From: a virus
Lineage: Duplodnaviria > Heunggongvirae > Uroviricota > Caudoviricetes
IMG/VR virus record: IMGVR_UViG_648276644_000012
Span: 1 to 41,039 of that record
Length of the DNA stretch: 41,039 nucleotides
Strand: one strand, 5' to 3'
The translations under genes and the position numbers were made by a program. The notes under the pieces were generated by a model that saw only the letters and a list, made by a program, of their open reading frames with translations, ran no database searches and had not been told where the DNA came from. This document shows, in pieces, positions 3,269 to 41,039 of this stretch (within the stretch, counting starts at the first letter, position 1; every line of letters begins with the position of its first letter).

Positions 3269-3964
3269 ATGAAGTCAAAACAAACAAATAGAAAGTCTCA
3301 AGCAAATAAATATTTGGCAATGCTGTTTATTCTGATTGCAATAGTTATTATAGTATTGTCTGTTCGTTCAATTAGAAATTATTTATCTCAAAAAAAAGTT
3401 AACGACTTTCAGGCTGTGATGCTAGATTTTAAAAAAATGAATGCTAATCAAGCTGACGGCGACATTGTGGTTTATGGCGACTCGCTCATACAAGGAATGT
3501 CACCATATGGGTTAAACTTTAAATATGTTAATATGGGGGTCGGAGGATACTCTATACATCAGATCCTAACTCTATCAGAAAATTATGGGGCGTCTGGATA
3601 TAAAGCTGCGATAATTGAAGGTGGAGTTAACGATGCGATGGGTGCGAAAACCGAAGAGGAAATATTTGATGATTATGACAAACTGCTTAAGAGTGTATCA
3701 AAGGTTGATAATATTTATGCATTAAAAGTTTTGCCAATCATAAGCGGGGCAAGAAAAGACGTAGACCATGTCAATTCAAGAATAAGCATGATTAACTCTA
3801 TTATTGATAGAACATGTAGTCGCATAGTTAACTGCAATATAATAGAAGTTCCTGCAGATTTTTTATCTGATAAAAAATCTGAATTGTACTTTGATGATGG
3901 AGTGCATTTAAATAAAAATGGCTATGCCGTTTGGATGAGAGAGATTAATAAACATGTGAAGTAA
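3269..3964 (+). CDS. Membrane-anchored SGNH/GDSL hydrolase (esterase/acetyltransferase partner domain)
   Basis: N-terminal TM helix LAMLFILIAIVIIVLSV; SGNH blocks VVYGDSLIQG (block I), GGVNDA (block III), DDGVHLNKNGY (block V); own SD AAGGA before ATG. Confidence 0.75.
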   Translation: MKSKQTNRKSQANKYLAMLFILIAIVIIVLSVRSIRNYLSQKKVNDFQAVMLDFKKMNANQADGDIVVYGDSLIQGMSPYGLNFKYVNMGVGGYSIHQILTLSENYGASGYKAAIIEGGVNDAMGAKTEEEIFDDYDKLLKSVSKVDNIYALKVLPIISGARKDVDHVNSRISMINSIIDRTCSRIVNCNIIEVPADFLSDKKSELYFDDGVHLNKNGYAVWMREINKHVK

Positions 3965-7230: not shown

Positions 7231-7298
7231 GTTGGTTTTTCTCCACGAATTTACTGACAACCGAAGCCCTGACTGTTCCCGCAGTTGGGGCTTCAACT

Positions 7299-31532: not shown

Positions 31533-32885
<1,353 letters not shown>

Positions 32886-32935
32886 TCCCCACCTCAATCT
32901 CGATAACCAAATAACAAAATATTTTCCGTTTAAAA

Positions 32936-33003
32936 ACAATGGAGTTTGTTTTTTACGCCTCTTATTACAATATTTCTTGTTTACAACATACAATCTTTCT
33001 TGT
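32936..33003. promoter_or_regulatory. oL operators (434 type) with pL
   Basis: ACAATGGAGTTTGT (32936-32949), ACAATATTTCTTGT (32967-32980), ACAATCTTTCTTGT (32990-33003). Confidence 0.75.
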
Positions 33004-33047
33004 AATTTTAAGCCATCAGCAGGACGCACTGACCACCATGAAGGTGA

Positions 33048-33078
33048 CGCTCTTAAAAATTAAGCCCTGAAGAAGGGC
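33048..33078 (+). promoter_or_regulatory. nutL (boxA + boxB)
   Basis: boxA CGCTCTTA (33048-33055) and boxB GCCCTGAAGAAGGGC (33064-33078) upstream of N. Confidence 0.8.
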
Positions 33079-33188
33079 AGCATTCAAAGCAGAAAGCTTT
33101 GAGTAGCGCGAAATGCAGCTGCAAGACAGCAACCGTGGAGATAAGCATCACGGCGCGTTACTCAAAGCTAACTGACAGGAGAATCCAA

Positions 33189-33515
33189 ATGGATGCACAA
33201 ACACGCCGCCGCGAACGTCGCGCAGAGAAACAGGCTCAATGGAAAGCAGCAAATCCCCTGTTGGTTGGGGTAAGCGCAAAACCAGTTAACCGCCCTATTC
33301 TCTCGCTGAATCGCAAACCGAAATCACGAGTAGAAAGCGCACTGAATCCGATAGACCTTACGGTGCTGGCTGAATACCACGAACAGATTGAAAGCAACCT
33401 GCACCGTATTGAGCGCAAGAATCAGCGCACATGGTACAGCAAGCCACGCAGTGAAATGGGTGTGACTTGTGTTGGTCGCCAGAAAATGAAATTAGGCAGC
33501 AAACCACTTATTTGA
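33189..33515 (+). CDS. N: Antiterminator N (lambda type)
   Basis: MDAQTRRRERRAEKQAQWKAANPLLVGVSAKPVNRPILSLNRKPKSRVESALNPIDLTVLAEYH... matches lambda N as recalled (arginine-rich motif). Confidence 0.9.
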   Translation: MDAQTRRRERRAEKQAQWKAANPLLVGVSAKPVNRPILSLNRKPKSRVESALNPIDLTVLAEYHEQIESNLHRIERKNQRTWYSKPRSEMGVTCVGRQKMKLGSKPLI

Positions 33516-33526
33516 GAGGAATTAAT

Positions 33527-34150
33527 ATGTCATCAATCCGCTTAACTACGAGAATGAAAGAGGAAATCGCTCGTAACGCTTTAATTAAGTCTGGGGTTTT
33601 CACTGAACTTGAAGAAGTAACAAAGTTAAAGAACCAGCTTGCACTTGACGCCAGAGTTATTGCGTTTGGCGGTAAAAAGAAAACTGAGGAAGTGGATCAG
33701 TTATCATCCAAGTTGGTAGCTATAAGTGAAGAACTTGAAAAGATGGGATGTTCATTTTACTCATACGGTGTTCGTTCTACTTCAATTTATCTGACTGTAT
33801 CTGGCAGAAGGGTTGGATGGCATTCATATGGGAAAGACGGCAACGGCGAAGATATATTGCTCCCTACTCCAACCAAAGATAAATGCATGTTTGACGCAGA
33901 ACACGAAATAACAAAAAGGTTTGATGAAATCTGCGCATTGCAACAAAACCTTGAAGCCTTGAAAAAGGATATCGAATCAAATGTATGGGCTGCTTTGAAC
34001 TCAGTAACAACAGTTAAGCGACTTATTGAAGTTTGGCCTGAAAGCAAAGAATTGCTACCAAAAGAAGCAGATAAAGCAAGTACAGCACTTCCTGCTTTAC
34101 GGGTAGAAGATTTGAATAAGATGATTGGACTTACTTCCGAGGCCGCATAG
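33527..34150 (+). CDS. Hypothetical early-left protein (ral/sieB-equivalent position)
   Basis: 207 aa from MSSIRLTTRMKEEIARNALIKSG; AT-rich by eye; no recognisable motif. Confidence 0.5.
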   Translation: MSSIRLTTRMKEEIARNALIKSGVFTELEEVTKLKNQLALDARVIAFGGKKKTEEVDQLSSKLVAISEELEKMGCSFYSYGVRSTSIYLTVSGRRVGWHSYGKDGNGEDILLPTPTKDKCMFDAEHEITKRFDEICALQQNLEALKKDIESNVWAALNSVTTVKRLIEVWPESKELLPKEADKASTALPALRVEDLNKMIGLTSEAA

Positions 34151-34166
34151 TCGGCCTTTATTTTTG
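34141..34166 (+). terminator. Rho-independent terminator overlapping the stop of the preceding gene
   Basis: GGCCG-CATAGT-CGGCC hairpin followed by TTTATTTTT. Confidence 0.55.
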
Positions 34167-34284
34167 GCATAAACAACAGAATAAACACTGCACTGTGTAT
34201 TCATTCCAACGAGTGAATACACGGAGCAATGTCGCTCGTAACCAAACAGGAGCCGACTTGTTCTGATTATTGGAAATCTTCTTT

Positions 34285-34311
34285 GCCCTCCAATGTGAGG
34301 GCAGTTTTTTT
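34285..34311 (+). terminator. Rho-independent terminator-like hairpin just upstream of the next gene
   Basis: GCCCTC-CAATGT-GAGGGC followed by AG and TTTTTTT. Confidence 0.55.
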
Positions 34312-34323
34312 GATGGAGGAATT

Positions 34324-34740
34324 ATGGAAATTACAGATATTCTGGTTAATCCAGATAATTACGACCAATTCAATATCTCTACTCAATCAGTTGATTTGGG
34401 TTGTGCAACTGTCAGCGCATGGCTACTTAATGGTAAACAGTTGGATAAATGCCTTGATGCACATATGACGGTTAACAGCTTCCTTGCAGAAAAAACACAC
34501 TGGCAAGATGCTGGAGGGAAATATGCTGGATGGCTTGAAAGCATGGGATTTGAATATCAATCTGATGAAGGTTGGTGGAGCCTTATAGCTGTAACGCCTG
34601 AGACAATAGAATGCTTCGTTAAATACTCAAACGACGATGACTATAAACACCAGGTAGATTCTGCGATAGAAAGATATAAAAGAAAATCATTCAGCCACGA
34701 AATATCATCAGTTCTTGATTTCATAGAAGTCTTCAAATAA
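34324..34740 (+). CDS. Hypothetical early-left protein
   Basis: 138 aa from MEITDILVNPDNYDQF; AT-rich by eye; no recognisable motif. Confidence 0.5.
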   Translation: MEITDILVNPDNYDQFNISTQSVDLGCATVSAWLLNGKQLDKCLDAHMTVNSFLAEKTHWQDAGGKYAGWLESMGFEYQSDEGWWSLIAVTPETIECFVKYSNDDDYKHQVDSAIERYKRKSFSHEISSVLDFIEVFK

Positions 34741-34824
34741 GCCGCCTGAGCGCGGCTTTACCGCATACCAATAACGCTTCACTCGAGGCGTTTTCGTTAT
34801 GCAATCAAATATAAGGAGTTACCC

Positions 34825-34959
34825 ATGATGCACTTTCAGCTCGCGGGTAGCGGCGTCATGTCCGCTTTCTACCCGCACGAATCTGAATTATCACGCCGAG
34901 TTAAACAATTAATCAGAGCAGCAAAGAAACAACTGGAGGCGTTATGCGCAATGAAATAG
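34825..34959 (+). CDS. cIII: cIII-like small protein
   Basis: Manual translation MMHFQLAGSGVMSAFYPHESELSRRVKQLIRAAKKQLEALCAMK; SD AAGGAG 6 nt upstream; pattern AG...ES.L.RR...L resembles lambda CIII; below ORF-track cutoff. Confidence 0.45.
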   Translation: MMHFQLAGSGVMSAFYPHESELSRRVKQLIRAAKKQLEALCAMK

Positions 34960-35096
34960 CCATTAATCACCAGATGCTTCGTGCAGCACAAAACAAAGCA
35001 GTAATAGCCAGATTTATTGGTGATTCCAAAATGTGGCTTGAAGCAAATAAAGCGATGAAATCAGCTATCAACCTTCCGTGGTATCGCAGGAAATGA
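34944..35096 (+). CDS. kil: Kil-like small protein
   Basis: Manual translation MRNEIAINHQMLRAAQNKAVIARFIGDSKMWLEANKAMKSAINLPWYRRK; motif A(R/T)FIGD(S/E)KM resembles lambda Kil as recalled. Confidence 0.5.
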   Translation: MRNEIAINHQMLRAAQNKAVIARFIGDSKMWLEANKAMKSAINLPWYRRK

Positions 35097-35263
35097 GTTT
35101 TACAGATAACTGGTCAGACGAAGAATTCATTCGTCAGATGAAAGAATTAATCGGTAACGAAGGAGATATTCATGTCACTTGCAACCACAGTGAAGGAGAG
35201 CAAGTTACAGAGACGCATGTACACGCAGCAGGCGTTAATGTATCGCCAGAAGGGAGATCGTGA
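35093..35263 (+). CDS. Small hypothetical protein
   Basis: ATG overlaps kil-like stop (ATGA); 56 aa acidic protein MSFTDNWSDEEFIRQMKELIG. Confidence 0.3.
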   Translation: MSFTDNWSDEEFIRQMKELIGNEGDIHVTCNHSEGEQVTETHVHAAGVNVSPEGRS

Positions 35264-39791: not shown

Positions 39792-41039
39792 CTATATTGC
39801 TGAAGGTACAGGCGTTTCCATAACTATTTGCTCGCGTTTTTTACTCAAGAAGAAAATGCCAAATAGCAACATCAGGCAGACAATACCCGAAATTGCGAAG
39901 AAAACTGTCTGGTAGCCTGCGTGGTCAAAGAGTATCCCAGTCGGCGTTGAAAGCAGCACAATCCCAAGCGAACTGGCAATTTGAAAACCAATCAGAAAGA
40001 TCGTCGACGACAGGCGCTTATCAAAGTTTGCCACGCTGTATTTGAAGACGGATATGACACAAAGTGGAACCTCAATGGCATGTAACAACTTCACTAATGA
40101 AATAATCCAGGGGTTAACGAACAGCGCGCAGGAAAGGATACGCAACGCCATAATCACAACTCCGATAAGTAATGCATTTTTTGGCCCTACCCGATTCACA
40201 AAGAAAGGAATAATCGCCATGCACAGCGCTTCGAGTACCACCTGGAATGAGTTGAGATAACCATACAGGCGCGTTCCTACATCGTGTGATTCGAATAAAC
40301 CTGCATAAAAGACAGGAAAAAGTTGTTGATCAAAAATGTTATAGAAAGACCACGTCCCCACAATAAATATGACGAAAACCCAGAAGTTTCGATCCTTGAA
40401 AACTGCGATAAAATCCTCTTTTTTTACCCCTCCCGCATCTGCCGCTACGCACTGGTGATCCTTATCTTTAAAACGCATGTTGATCATCATAAATACAGCG
40501 CCAAATAGCGAGACCAACCAGAAGTTGATATGGGGACTGATACTAAAAAATATGCCGGCAAAGAACGCGCCAATAGCATAGCCAAAAGATCCCCAGGCGC
40601 GCGCTGTTCCATATTCGAAATGAAAATTTCGCGCCATTTTTTCGGTGAAGCTATCAAGCAAACCGCATCCCGCCAGATACCCCAAGCCAAAAAATAGCGC
40701 CCCCAGAATTAGACCTACAGAAAAATTGCTTTGCAGTAACGGTTCATAAACGTAAATCATAAACGGTCCGGTCAAGACCAGGATGAAACTCATACACCAG
40801 ATGAGCGGTTTCTTCAGACCGAGTTTATCCTGAACGATGCCGTAGAACATCATAAATAGAATGCTGGTAAACTGGTTGACCGAATAAAGTGTACCTAATT
40901 CCGTCCCTGTCAACCCTAGATGTCCTTTCAGCCAAATAGCGTATAACGACCACCACAGCGACCAGGAAATAAAAAAGAGAAATGAGTAACTGGATGCAAA
41001 ACGATAGTACGCATTTCTGAATGGAATATTCAGTGCCAT
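39792..41039 (-). CDS. cscB: LacY-family oligosaccharide:H+ symporter (sucrose permease CscB-like), host gene
   Basis: 415 aa, 12-TM MFS protein with LacY-family motifs (GIVQDKLGLKKPL, FEYGTARAWGS, GTRLYGYL...KNALLIG); csc locus is known to lie near argW in some E. coli. Confidence 0.7.
   Translation of the reverse strand: MALNIPFRNAYYRFASSYSFLFFISWSLWWSLYAIWLKGHLGLTGTELGTLYSVNQFTSILFMMFYGIVQDKLGLKKPLIWCMSFILVLTGPFMIYVYEPLLQSNFSVGLILGALFFGLGYLAGCGLLDSFTEKMARNFHFEYGTARAWGSFGYAIGAFFAGIFFSISPHINFWLVSLFGAVFMMINMRFKDKDHQCVAADAGGVKKEDFIAVFKDRNFWVFVIFIVGTWSFYNIFDQQLFPVFYAGLFESHDVGTRLYGYLNSFQVVLEALCMAIIPFFVNRVGPKNALLIGVVIMALRILSCALFVNPWIISLVKLLHAIEVPLCVISVFKYSVANFDKRLSSTIFLIGFQIASSLGIVLLSTPTGILFDHAGYQTVFFAISGIVCLMLLFGIFFLSKKREQIVMETPVPSAI

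Follow-up and report, generated by a model that had tools for sequence, protein, structure and literature searches.

A PreS small RNA gene between two exchangeable accessory genes in the early leftward operon of a lambdoid prophage

The window – the whole 41,039-nucleotide stretch of viral DNA that was analyzed – carries a copy of PreS (LPR1), a small RNA gene of phage lambda, between two widespread prophage accessory genes. The locus is ordinary and already known. It is very probably a standard early leftward (pL) stretch of a P22/HK620-like lambdoid prophage, made up of conserved non-coding linkers and interchangeable accessory genes. A first-pass annotation, made from the sequence alone, had proposed a small RNA locus with a transcript ending at 34311. 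The idea is correct, and the RNA is the published lambda LPR1/PreS, which ends at the terminator tL2a, yet it has been in print since 2024. PreS is a functionally characterized phage small RNA that annotation has overlooked, found beside many different cargo genes.

Layout of the pL region

The features of the region, all on the plus strand, are as follows.

33049–33078 (+): nutL, with boxA CGCTCTTA and boxB GCCCTGAAGAAGGGC, read from the sequence and given for context only
33189–33515 (+): antiterminator gene N
33527–34150 (+): ORF1, 207 aa, Nmad5 family, in the ral/sieB slot
34139–34166 (+): intrinsic terminator over the ORF1 stop codon
34185–34232 (+): imperfect 22-bp hairpin with a perfect 9-bp inverted repeat as its core
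34224–34311 (+): PreS (LPR1) small RNA gene, 88 nt
34258–34278 (+): PreS seed region, UUGUUCUGAUUAUUGGAAAUC
34283–34311 (+): terminator tL2a, the 3’ end of PreS
34324–34740 (+): ORF2, 138 aa, acidic, phrog_8967
34741–34824 (+): conserved linker before cIII, the lambda ea10-cIII intergenic region
34825–34959 (+): cIII, the next conserved gene

The N-utilization site nutL makes pL transcripts read through downstream terminators. Its surroundings (33014–33101) are 98.9% identical to lambda, and nutL-equivalent sites are annotated in the HK542 record EF120458. The N gene (Pfam N36, E 1.6e-26) has 93% nucleotide identity to lambda N, and cIII matches Pfam cIII (E 2e-30). ORF1 and ORF2 form the part of the pL operon directly downstream of N. 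Both are AT-rich, as first described, with a GC content of 0.401 and 0.379 respectively (40% and 38%, against 46%, or 0.463, in the whole window).

Five terminator-like sites were found in 32850–35200, compared to 2.0 ± 1.3 in shuffled sequences. Two of these (34139–34158 and 34283–34304) are the hairpins that had been noticed between the ORFs. The linker downstream of ORF2 has a GC hairpin right after the stop codon (34740–34757) and a terminator-like hairpin at 34773–34792 in the terminator scan; 34741–34801 has 95% identity to lambda 33483–33544.

The two genes had been assigned together to the ral/sieB slot. Comparison with lambda refines this: ORF1 is in the ral/sieB slot and ORF2 in the ea10 slot. 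Homology to lambda ends at 34310 and resumes at 34741, making ORF2 an exact positional replacement of ea10. As judged from these alignments, the ORF1 cassette stands in for lambda sieB/ral and the ORF2 cassette for ea10. The locus illustrates how the lambdoid pL operon is constructed, with invariant RNA-encoding linkers as the joints at which one ORF is exchanged for another.

The PreS small RNA

The region 34147–34310 is 96.3% identical to lambda 33925–34087, the ral-ea10 intergenic region, and the same block is found in 329 phage records at 95–99% identity. In lambda, LPR1/PreS is an RNA of ca. 88 nt encoded between ral and ea10 and ending at tL2a (Silverman, Nashef, Bruner, Noy and Melamed, bioRxiv 10.1101/2024.10.31.621285). 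Its ends were mapped onto the window with the primers of Table S5 and the deletion arms of that study. Primers P810/P1103 (5’ end) place the +1 position at 34224 and primer P1104 (3’ end) places the last nucleotide at 34311, each mapping uniquely. Between these ends, 83 of the 88 positions (94.3%) are identical to lambda PreS, with no gaps, which is within the range (at least 92% identity to lambda lpr1, no more than 3 gaps) in which those authors count a sequence as PreS. The gene lies on the pL strand, flanked by the ral-slot gene and the ea10-slot gene, with N upstream and cIII downstream.

In the predicted fold of the RNA (z = −3.3), the seed is left single-stranded between a 5’ stem and the terminator. 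The seed is identical to that of lambda and holds the positions mutated in lambda LPR1-M1 (34263–34265) and LPR1-M2 (34273–34275). With the leader of E. coli dnaN, as reconstructed from the Table S5 primers, the predicted duplex is −41.1 kcal/mol for the PreS of the window and −41.3 kcal/mol for lambda PreS, against −15.6 ± 3.2 kcal/mol for shuffled sequences. The 3’ end is the Rho-independent terminator tL2a, a hairpin at 34283–34304 with an 8-bp stem (5 GC pairs) and a tail of seven T (U7 in the RNA) that reaches 34311; in lambda this terminator with its U-tail is the Hfq-binding module of PreS.

Lambda PreS is expressed only in the lytic cycle and is silent in lysogens. It depends on Hfq, and its seed pairs with the dnaA-dnaN mRNA and opens the dnaN ribosome-binding site, which raises the level of the beta clamp and phage DNA replication; alaS is repressed by PreS as well (bioRxiv 10.1101/2024.10.31.621285). 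By extrapolation, the PreS of the window would bind Hfq, be expressed in the lytic cycle and up-regulate dnaN as in lambda.

PreS was found in 2,225 of 5,426 complete E. coli genomes (ca. 41%), and the best five copies listed among these have no annotated feature over them. A search of the intergenic region against Rfam 15, at the gathering score and at E ≤ 5, gave no family, just chance matches (a ToxT thermometer, E 0.2, and TCL6_1).

The inverted repeat and the 5’ end of PreS

The perfect 9-bp inverted repeat that had been pointed out between the ORFs is present at the positions given, GTGTATTCA at 34195–34203 and TGAATACAC at 34214–34222 with a 10-nt spacer, and forms the core of a longer hairpin with 22-nt arms (34185–34206 and 34211–34232), found by a repeat search. 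The hairpin has a folding energy of −24.2 kcal/mol and contains G-U pairs. The inverted repeat is not the small RNA itself; it lies just 5’ of PreS, and the 3’ arm of the hairpin overlaps the +1 position and first 9 nt of PreS.

The suggestion that the repeat is a protein-binding regulatory site found no support. It is very unlikely to be a DNA operator for a promoter specific to ORF2 or to the small RNA, although the sequence is highly conserved and a perfect arm pair of this kind would seldom arise by chance, having appeared in 47 of 5000 shuffled versions of the 173-nt spacer between ORF1 and ORF2. No promoter-like hexamers are found nearby on either strand; a promoter scan found no sigma-70-like promoter in 34150–34224 and no candidate promoter for ORF2. 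The repeat is inside a transcribed operon, as part of a 22-bp RNA-type hairpin. Mosaic breakpoints fall within its left arm (34171, 34180, 34190 and 34201), and HK022 lacks most of that arm while keeping PreS and everything downstream. The silence of lambda PreS in lysogens is also what dependence on pL would predict.

The same breakpoints bear on another reading, in which the hairpin itself does nothing and is simply part of a “boundary sequence”, a joint for homologous recombination at which lambdoid phages swap accessory genes. EF120458 labels the sequence corresponding to 34190–34202, in the left arm, “boundary sequence 4”; homology to different phages begins at several points in or just before this arm; and the ORF1 and ORF2 cassettes are swapped precisely at these linkers. 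This is possible, though on balance doubtful as the whole account. All of the phages compared have an invariant right arm and an invariant stretch of 23 nt before the PreS +1, and the +1 falls exactly within the paired 3’ arm, a position that points to a connection with processing. The boundary and processing readings are mutually compatible.

Since the 5’ end of PreS is within the 3’ arm of the hairpin, the RNA is probably released when an endonuclease cleaves the pL transcript. The hairpin may have a role in this processing. However, HK022 keeps PreS without most of the left arm, and therefore the long hairpin cannot be essential for making PreS. PreS may instead have a weak promoter of its own, because bioRxiv 10.1101/2024.10.31.621285 is silent on how the 5’ end arises.

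Expression of the locus

Taken with the lambda results, this layout suggests the following course of expression. Transcription from pL would pass nutL and N and run uninterrupted into ORF1; with no break between the two genes, ORF1 would be an immediate-early product made together with N. Polymerase without the N modification would halt at the hairpin and T-run over the ORF1 stop codon. N-modified polymerase would continue through the long hairpin and then the 88-nt PreS, whose 3’ end would be set at tL2a and whose 5’ end would be cut out of the pL transcript by an endonuclease. With Hfq, PreS would then pair to the dnaA-dnaN mRNA, increasing the beta clamp and phage DNA replication, an effect shown in lambda only. 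ORF2 starts 12 nt past the T-run of tL2a, and it would therefore be expressed from antiterminated transcripts only.

ORF1, an Nmad5-family protein

ORF1 starts 11 nt past the N stop codon, with no terminator between. No recognizable motif had been seen in its product, but the protein matches the Nmad5 family (PF18757) over its full length: E 1.2e-69 and 234.9 bits (cut-off 27), residues 4–202 of 207 against profile positions 1–205 of 206. It also belongs to phrog_1965 (E 2.8e-81). The exact sequence is WP_000095079.1, for which the RefSeq name is Nmad5 family, and it is 97% identical to a protein of phage mEp235. ORF1 is present in 211 of 5426 E. coli genomes. The terminator at its stop codon has a hairpin at 34139–34158 with a 7-bp stem (5 GC pairs) and the tail TATTTTTGG; it is the first one that pL transcripts meet and is conserved in HK542 and mEp235. 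An antisense ORF of 133 aa annotated in EF120458 (33787–34188, minus strand) was considered and rejected as a side effect of conservation in the Nmad5 reading frame.

The name of the Nmad5 family rests on the neighborhood of nucleotide- or DNA-modification enzymes. An enzyme of this kind that chemically protects phage DNA is an improbable reading of ORF1, even though the protein is in PF18757 and the Nmad5 gene of M6-like Pseudomonas phages is beside a thymidine-hypermodification cassette, adjoining genes for aGPT-Pplase, a kinase and rSAM (PMC9476957). The pL operon encodes no partner enzyme (hydroxymethylase, kinase, aGPT-Pplase or radical SAM). The neighbors of ORF1 include no nucleotide- or DNA-modification enzymes; they are N, PreS, ORF2, cIII, Kil, a Rad52-like annealase, SSB, Ead/Ea22 and DUF551. 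Sequence searches detected no enzyme family in ORF1, and there was no NCBIfam or PADLOC match. In Dhillonvirus, moreover, deletion of nmad5 left sensitivity to the Tmn defense system unchanged while a point mutation altered it (PMC11846954).

ORF2, a phrog_8967 protein

ORF2 is preceded by a ribosome-binding site (GGAGG, 34315–34319). The absence of a recognizable motif in its product was borne out in that it matched nothing in Pfam, NCBIfam or PADLOC. It is a full-length member of phrog_8967 (E 2.2e-87, residues 1–138), as are 26 of 26 diverse members of its family, which has 62 representatives at 50% clustering. It fits the core of this group, D-W-G-G-x-Y-A-x-W-L...G-W-W-S-x-x-A-[VI]-x-P-E-N, with invariant residues Y67, L71, W84, W85 and A89. 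The protein has a pI of 4.5 and a net charge of −12.

ORF2 is present in 37 of 5426 E. coli genomes and absent from HK542 and mEp235, though these share its flanks. In independent prophages, too, homologs are found in the pL operon, with N on one side and cIII or recombinase genes on the other, and a protein of the Vequintavirinae has about 66% amino acid and 74% nucleotide identity. The distant homologs are mostly on short contigs; one phage contig of 113 kb encodes a fused version of 331 aa between RecT/YqaJ and RtcB, and these settings say too little to assign a function.

The best structure model of ORF2 is of moderate confidence (pLDDT 76; the other four models, 38–56), and no solved fold or structural relative was found. 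Profile searches of the PDB with the family alignments of ORF1 and ORF2 gave nothing significant, and a literature search by protein accession, PHROG number and Pfam number found nothing. ORF2 was also considered as an Ea10 homolog and rejected, as hhalign of its family against lambda Ea10 gave a probability of 0.1%.

Possible early roles of ORF1 and ORF2

The first-pass annotation had named both genes as candidates for anti-defense or defense functions, and the evidence for this is circumstantial. The best guess is that both proteins are early host-takeover or counter-defense factors, and that they bind macromolecules rather than act as enzymes. That ORF1, ORF2 or both inhibit a host factor by binding to it early in infection is put forward tentatively. 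In its favor, ORF1 takes the place of ral, an anti-restriction gene, and shares a transcript with N upstream of the first terminator. The ORF2 product is small and acidic; its gene is found in the variable early part of several independent prophages and, in the virulent Vequintavirinae that share it, within a block of small early genes. In Dhillonvirus (phiSMS22 and phiSMA8), point mutants of Nmad5, with a K-to-E change, escape Tmn (Yamashita et al. 2025, PMC11846954); this escape is the only phenotype of Dhillonvirus Nmad5 (PMC11846954). It presents Nmad5 as a trigger of a defense system, however, and not as an inhibitor. Location in an accessory slot carries little weight, and neither protein resembles known anti-defense proteins in sequence or fold; no component of the PADLOC defense systems or known anti-defense folds is similar to ORF1 or ORF2.

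It is conceivable, if less than likely, that ORF2 is an unrecognized early effector, inhibiting a host defense or redirecting a host process, and that Nmad5 is likewise a counter-defense factor of the binding type, perhaps what Tmn senses. As to ORF2, the protein is small and acidic with an invariant Y...L...GWW...A core, and its gene is traded between temperate lambdoid prophages, where it takes the ea10 slot, and virulent rV5-like myoviruses, where it is in the early region. The roles of Nmad5 and phrog_8967 would be cheap to test here, in a well-understood genetic system.

Comparison with known systems

The closest relatives of the ORF1 end of the locus are in mEp235 (gp37), HK542 (gp33) and HK244 (orf01), each of which encodes a 95–97% identical protein of 207 aa directly after N (or Nun). 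These phages share the terminator and the downstream linker with the window; unlike the window, their ea10 slot is empty and the linker runs straight into cIII.

Dhillonvirus Nmad5 is of the same Pfam family as ORF1 and shares the core motif T-x-K-[KR]-L-I-E-x-W-P-E. ORF1 aligns over its full length to gp07 of Oekolampad with 25% identity. Provided that phiSMA8 and Oekolampad gp07 are collinear, the lysine mutated in Dhillonvirus aligns with R165 of ORF1, within the Nmad5 motif that is conserved best. Unlike ORF1, the Dhillonvirus gene is on the opposite strand, surrounded by capsid and lysis genes, and it has an insertion of ca. 45 aa.

The Vequintavirinae (rV5/FV3-like) relative of ORF2, such as bas59_0086 of EduardKellenberger, is also 138 aa long, with 66–68% amino acid identity, and is in phrog_8967. 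In contrast to ORF2, it is encoded in a virulent myovirus of 135 kb, where its neighbors are small, unannotated early genes and there is no PreS or lambdoid context.

Compared to lambda, ORF1 takes the place of the N-proximal segment sieB/orf28/ral; ORF2 takes that of ea10, with an exchange exact to the base within the same linkers. There is no sequence relationship in either case. The PreS gene has the same position in the pL operon, strand, seed, terminator stem and U-tail, and upstream hairpin in both phages. Five substitutions distinguish the PreS of the window – U20C, one in the terminator loop and three in the tail (GAUUUUUUA to AGUUUUUUU). The genes flanking it are those for Nmad5 and phrog_8967 rather than ral and ea10, and the phage that carries it is a P22-like podovirus.

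The PreS small RNA between the two ORFs

The two AT-rich genes that the first-pass annotation placed after N are both present: ORF1 at 33527–34150 (207 aa, 40.1% GC) and ORF2 at 34324–34740 (138 aa, 37.9% GC), in a window of 46.3% GC. The non-coding element between them is an already described and functionally characterised small RNA gene with its terminator. Positions 34147–34310 align by BLAST with lambda 33925–34087, the ral–ea10 intergenic region, at 96.3% identity, and this 164-nt block is found at 95–99% identity in 329 phage records, including lambda, 933W, VT2-Sakai, HK022, HK75, Sf101 and many Stx phages. RIL-seq of lambda-infected E. coli identified an Hfq-bound sRNA, LPR1, renamed PreS, between ea10 and ral (Silverman et al., bioRxiv 10.1101/2024.10.31.621285). 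According to that preprint, lambda PreS is an RNA of about 88 nt, from which processing yields a form of about 68 nt; it has its 3' end at the terminator tL2a and is expressed only in the lytic cycle, being silent in lysogens. It opens the dnaN ribosome-binding site, which activates translation, and represses alaS; when its seed is deleted, replication of phage DNA falls, as does the spontaneous release of phage.

Table S5 of the preprint lists primers for cloning and in-vitro transcription, which give the 5' end of PreS as GAGCAATGTCGCTCGTAACT and its 3' end as the complement of TAAAAAATCGCCCTCACACTGGAGG; in the full-deletion design, the left homology arm ends ...GAGTGAATACACG. The two ends have unique placements in the window, at 34224 (with one mismatch) and 34311, on the + strand. 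The earlier proposal of a small RNA with its end at 34311 was therefore right, but the 2024 preprint had already described such an RNA.

Of the 88 positions of lambda PreS, 83 are identical in the window copy and five differ: U20C, one terminator-loop base and three tail bases. The seed is the same, including the M1 and M2 positions mutated in lambda. The predicted fold leaves the seed open, with a stem at the 5' end and the terminator at the 3' end. The duplex predicted with the dnaN leader has an energy of −41.1 kcal/mol; lambda PreS gives −41.3, and shuffled controls give −15.6 ± 3.2. U20C (34243) is the only substitution in the PreS body relative to lambda, HK542, mEp235, HK022, 933W and HK75, and lies near the expected 5' end of the processed 68-nt form, PreS-S. 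PreS-like sequences were found in 2,225 of 5,426 complete E. coli genomes (41%), with up to six copies per genome; one of these 2,225 has a copy 100% identical to that of the window. Among the matches listed in this search, all five PreS copies lie under no annotated RefSeq feature, and Rfam 15 has no PreS model.

The inverted repeat

Two terminator hairpins with T-runs were recovered by a terminator scan (34139–34158 and 34283–34304), and the perfect 9-bp inverted repeat at 34195–34222 is genuine; when the 173-nt spacer was shuffled, about 1% of the resulting sequences had an equally good repeat. It forms the core of a larger hairpin, whose arms are 22 nt each (34185–34206 and 34211–34232; −24.2 kcal/mol). 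The first nucleotide of PreS, G34224, lies within the 3' arm, two bases past the end of the perfect repeat, and a promoter scan found no promoter-like site upstream of it. The most economical reading is that PreS would be excised from the pL transcript at the hairpin base, because of this position of its 5' end, the lack of an upstream promoter-like site and the silence of lambda PreS in lysogens; the origin of the 5' end is not addressed in the preprint (bioRxiv 10.1101/2024.10.31.621285).

The repeat had also been proposed as a protein-binding site. Its perfect arms are what such a proposal draws on, but a DNA operator is unlikely here and the proposal found no support, given the result of the promoter scan and the state of the sequence in HK022, which retains everything from 34201 on and is without most of the left arm. 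The same gap in HK022 argues against an essential role for the hairpin, processing included. The left arm appears to be a recombination joint of the lambdoid mosaic as well, since the points at which homology starts in different phages (34147, 34153, 34171, 34180, 34190 and 34201) cluster in or before it, and GenBank record EF120458 (HK542) labels 34190–34202 "boundary sequence 4".

Prophage setting and operon order

The DNA of the window is a lambdoid prophage of the P22/HK620/Sf6 type. Over the first 25 kb it matches structural genes from HK620, Sf6 and related podoviruses at about 96% identity, and a sar antisense RNA marks a P22-type immI (ant/arc/mnt) region. It looks like a provirus that was trimmed at gene boundaries and kept one host gene. 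Between the integrase and the tailspike are the genes for an O-antigen acyltransferase (1536–2576) and a GDSL-family protein (3269–3964).

Features of the prophage and its early leftward operon
1–1158, +, P4-type integrase; its ATG is the first base of the window
7231–7298, +, sar antisense RNA (Rfam RF00262, 94.4 bits, E 4e-19)
31852–32484, +, cI-like repressor
32481–32885, +, 134-aa ORF (phrog_2651)
33189–33515, +, N (Pfam N36, E 1.6e-26)
34825–34959, +, cIII
39795–41039, −, LacY/CscB-like sugar permease (Pfam LacY_symp, E 1e-193); its ATG is the right end of the window

The early leftward operon, on the + strand, runs cI-like repressor, 134-aa ORF, nutL, N, ORF1, spacer, ORF2, cIII, kil, Rad52-like annealase and SSB. 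The 134-aa ORF has a hydrophobic, signal-like N-terminus and no match in Pfam or PADLOC, and its start overlaps the repressor stop by 4 nt. It occupies the rexAB slot and would thus probably be expressed together with the repressor in lysogens; it is a candidate gene for exclusion or lysogenic conversion. Downstream of nutL and ahead of the N start codon, the N leader has an inverted repeat (33090–33174, +; 21-nt arms, 86% complementary, 43-nt loop), which we take to be the counterpart of the RNase III-sensitive N-leader hairpin of lambda.

ORF1 is an Nmad5 protein

Neither ORF had been given a recognisable motif, which does not hold for ORF1: it is a full-length Nmad5 protein (PF18757, E 1.2e-69; phrog_1965, E 2.8e-81). 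RefSeq has an identical entry, WP_000095079.1, and the proteins encoded in this position by mEp235, HK542, HK244 and several Stx phages are 95–97% identical to it. Among 5,426 E. coli genomes, 211 carry ORF1. With more distant members, the family extends to Vibrio, Salmonella SP-058-like, Pseudomonas M6/YuA-like and Bordetella phages and to Dhillonvirus. The family name is based on gene neighbourhood; in M6-like phages the Nmad5 gene adjoins a thymidine-hypermodification cassette, whereas the neighbourhood of ORF1 has no such partners.

The only phenotype reported for the family is escape from the anti-phage defence system Tmn in Dhillonvirus, where a Lys-to-Glu change in Nmad5 gives escape and deletion of the gene does not (PMC11846954). 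The residue was reported in phiSMA8 as K216 (PMC11846954). In Escherichia phage Oekolampad, gp07 (1033–1797 of that phage's sequence), a 254-aa Dhillonvirus "hypothetical protein", aligns with ORF1 from end to end apart from some 45 aa inserted in gp07, and its K216 aligns with the conserved K/R of the Nmad5 core motif, R165 in ORF1. R165 is within T-x-K-[KR]-L-I-E-x-W-P-E, where conservation across the family is highest. Provided that phiSMA8 is collinear with the Oekolampad homologue, its escape lysine would align with R165 of ORF1.

ORF1 starts 11 nt past the N stop codon with no intervening terminator, so its position predicts synthesis at the same early time as N, with no need for antitermination. 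The first terminator of the operon is the hairpin over the ORF1 stop codon. An antisense 133-aa ORF (33787–34188, −) overlaps ORF1 and is annotated in EF120458 as hypothetical protein HK542c101; it is most likely a spurious call opposite the conserved Nmad5 frame.

ORF2 is a phrog_8967 protein in the ea10 slot

The match of ORF2 to phrog_8967 is full-length (E 2.2e-87); in agreement with the first-pass annotation, ORF2 has no match in Pfam, NCBIfam or PADLOC. It is unrelated to Ea10, which it replaces exactly: lambda homology ends at the tL2a T-run (34310) and is back at the base after the ORF2 stop codon, with 34741–34801 aligning by BLAST with lambda 33483–33544, the ea10–cIII spacer. In HK542 and mEp235 the two linkers are joined directly with nothing between them, whereas the window has ORF2 there. 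Homologues are found in the same place, between N and cIII or recombinase genes, in independent prophages: that of Dryocola, one on a Logan contig in which ral is present too, and those of E. coli strains Ec15103 and A3. The end of tL2a is 12 nt before the ORF2 ATG, so from this layout ORF2 could be expressed only from N-modified transcripts.

The exact ORF2 sequence is present as a "hypothetical protein" in 128 E. coli contigs, and ORF2 occurs in 37 of 5,426 complete E. coli genomes. No lambdoid isolate in the phage collection carries it; its matches there are 115 Vequintavirinae records (about 66% amino acid and 74% nucleotide identity), in which it lies within a run of small unannotated early genes. 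Sixteen "Campylobacter phage" records (135–143 kb) have an rV5-like homologue with the same identity as the E. coli Vequintavirinae, and look like mislabelled or contaminating coliphage genomes.

An exhaustive profile search with the family gave 62 cluster representatives, nearly all of 100–160 aa, and all relatives tested belong to phrog_8967. The family core is DWGGxYAxWL...GWWSxxA[VI]xPEN, with Y67, L71, W84, W85 and A89 invariant. ORF2 is acidic (pI 4.5, net charge −12). Its structure model, moderately reliable (pLDDT 76, a good score in one of five models), has no significant neighbour in PDB or BFVD.

Relation to known systems

The two genes are candidates for the proposed anti-defence roles. 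The circumstantial pointers to such a role are, for ORF1, its place in the ral slot, its immediate-early placement and the Tmn escape result; for ORF2, its position, its charge and its sharing with virulent phages. A modest chance remains that phrog_8967 or the lambdoid Nmad5 is a new early effector. The finding at this locus as a whole is already known, and ORF1 and ORF2 are known sequences from existing families without assigned function, in classical cassette slots.
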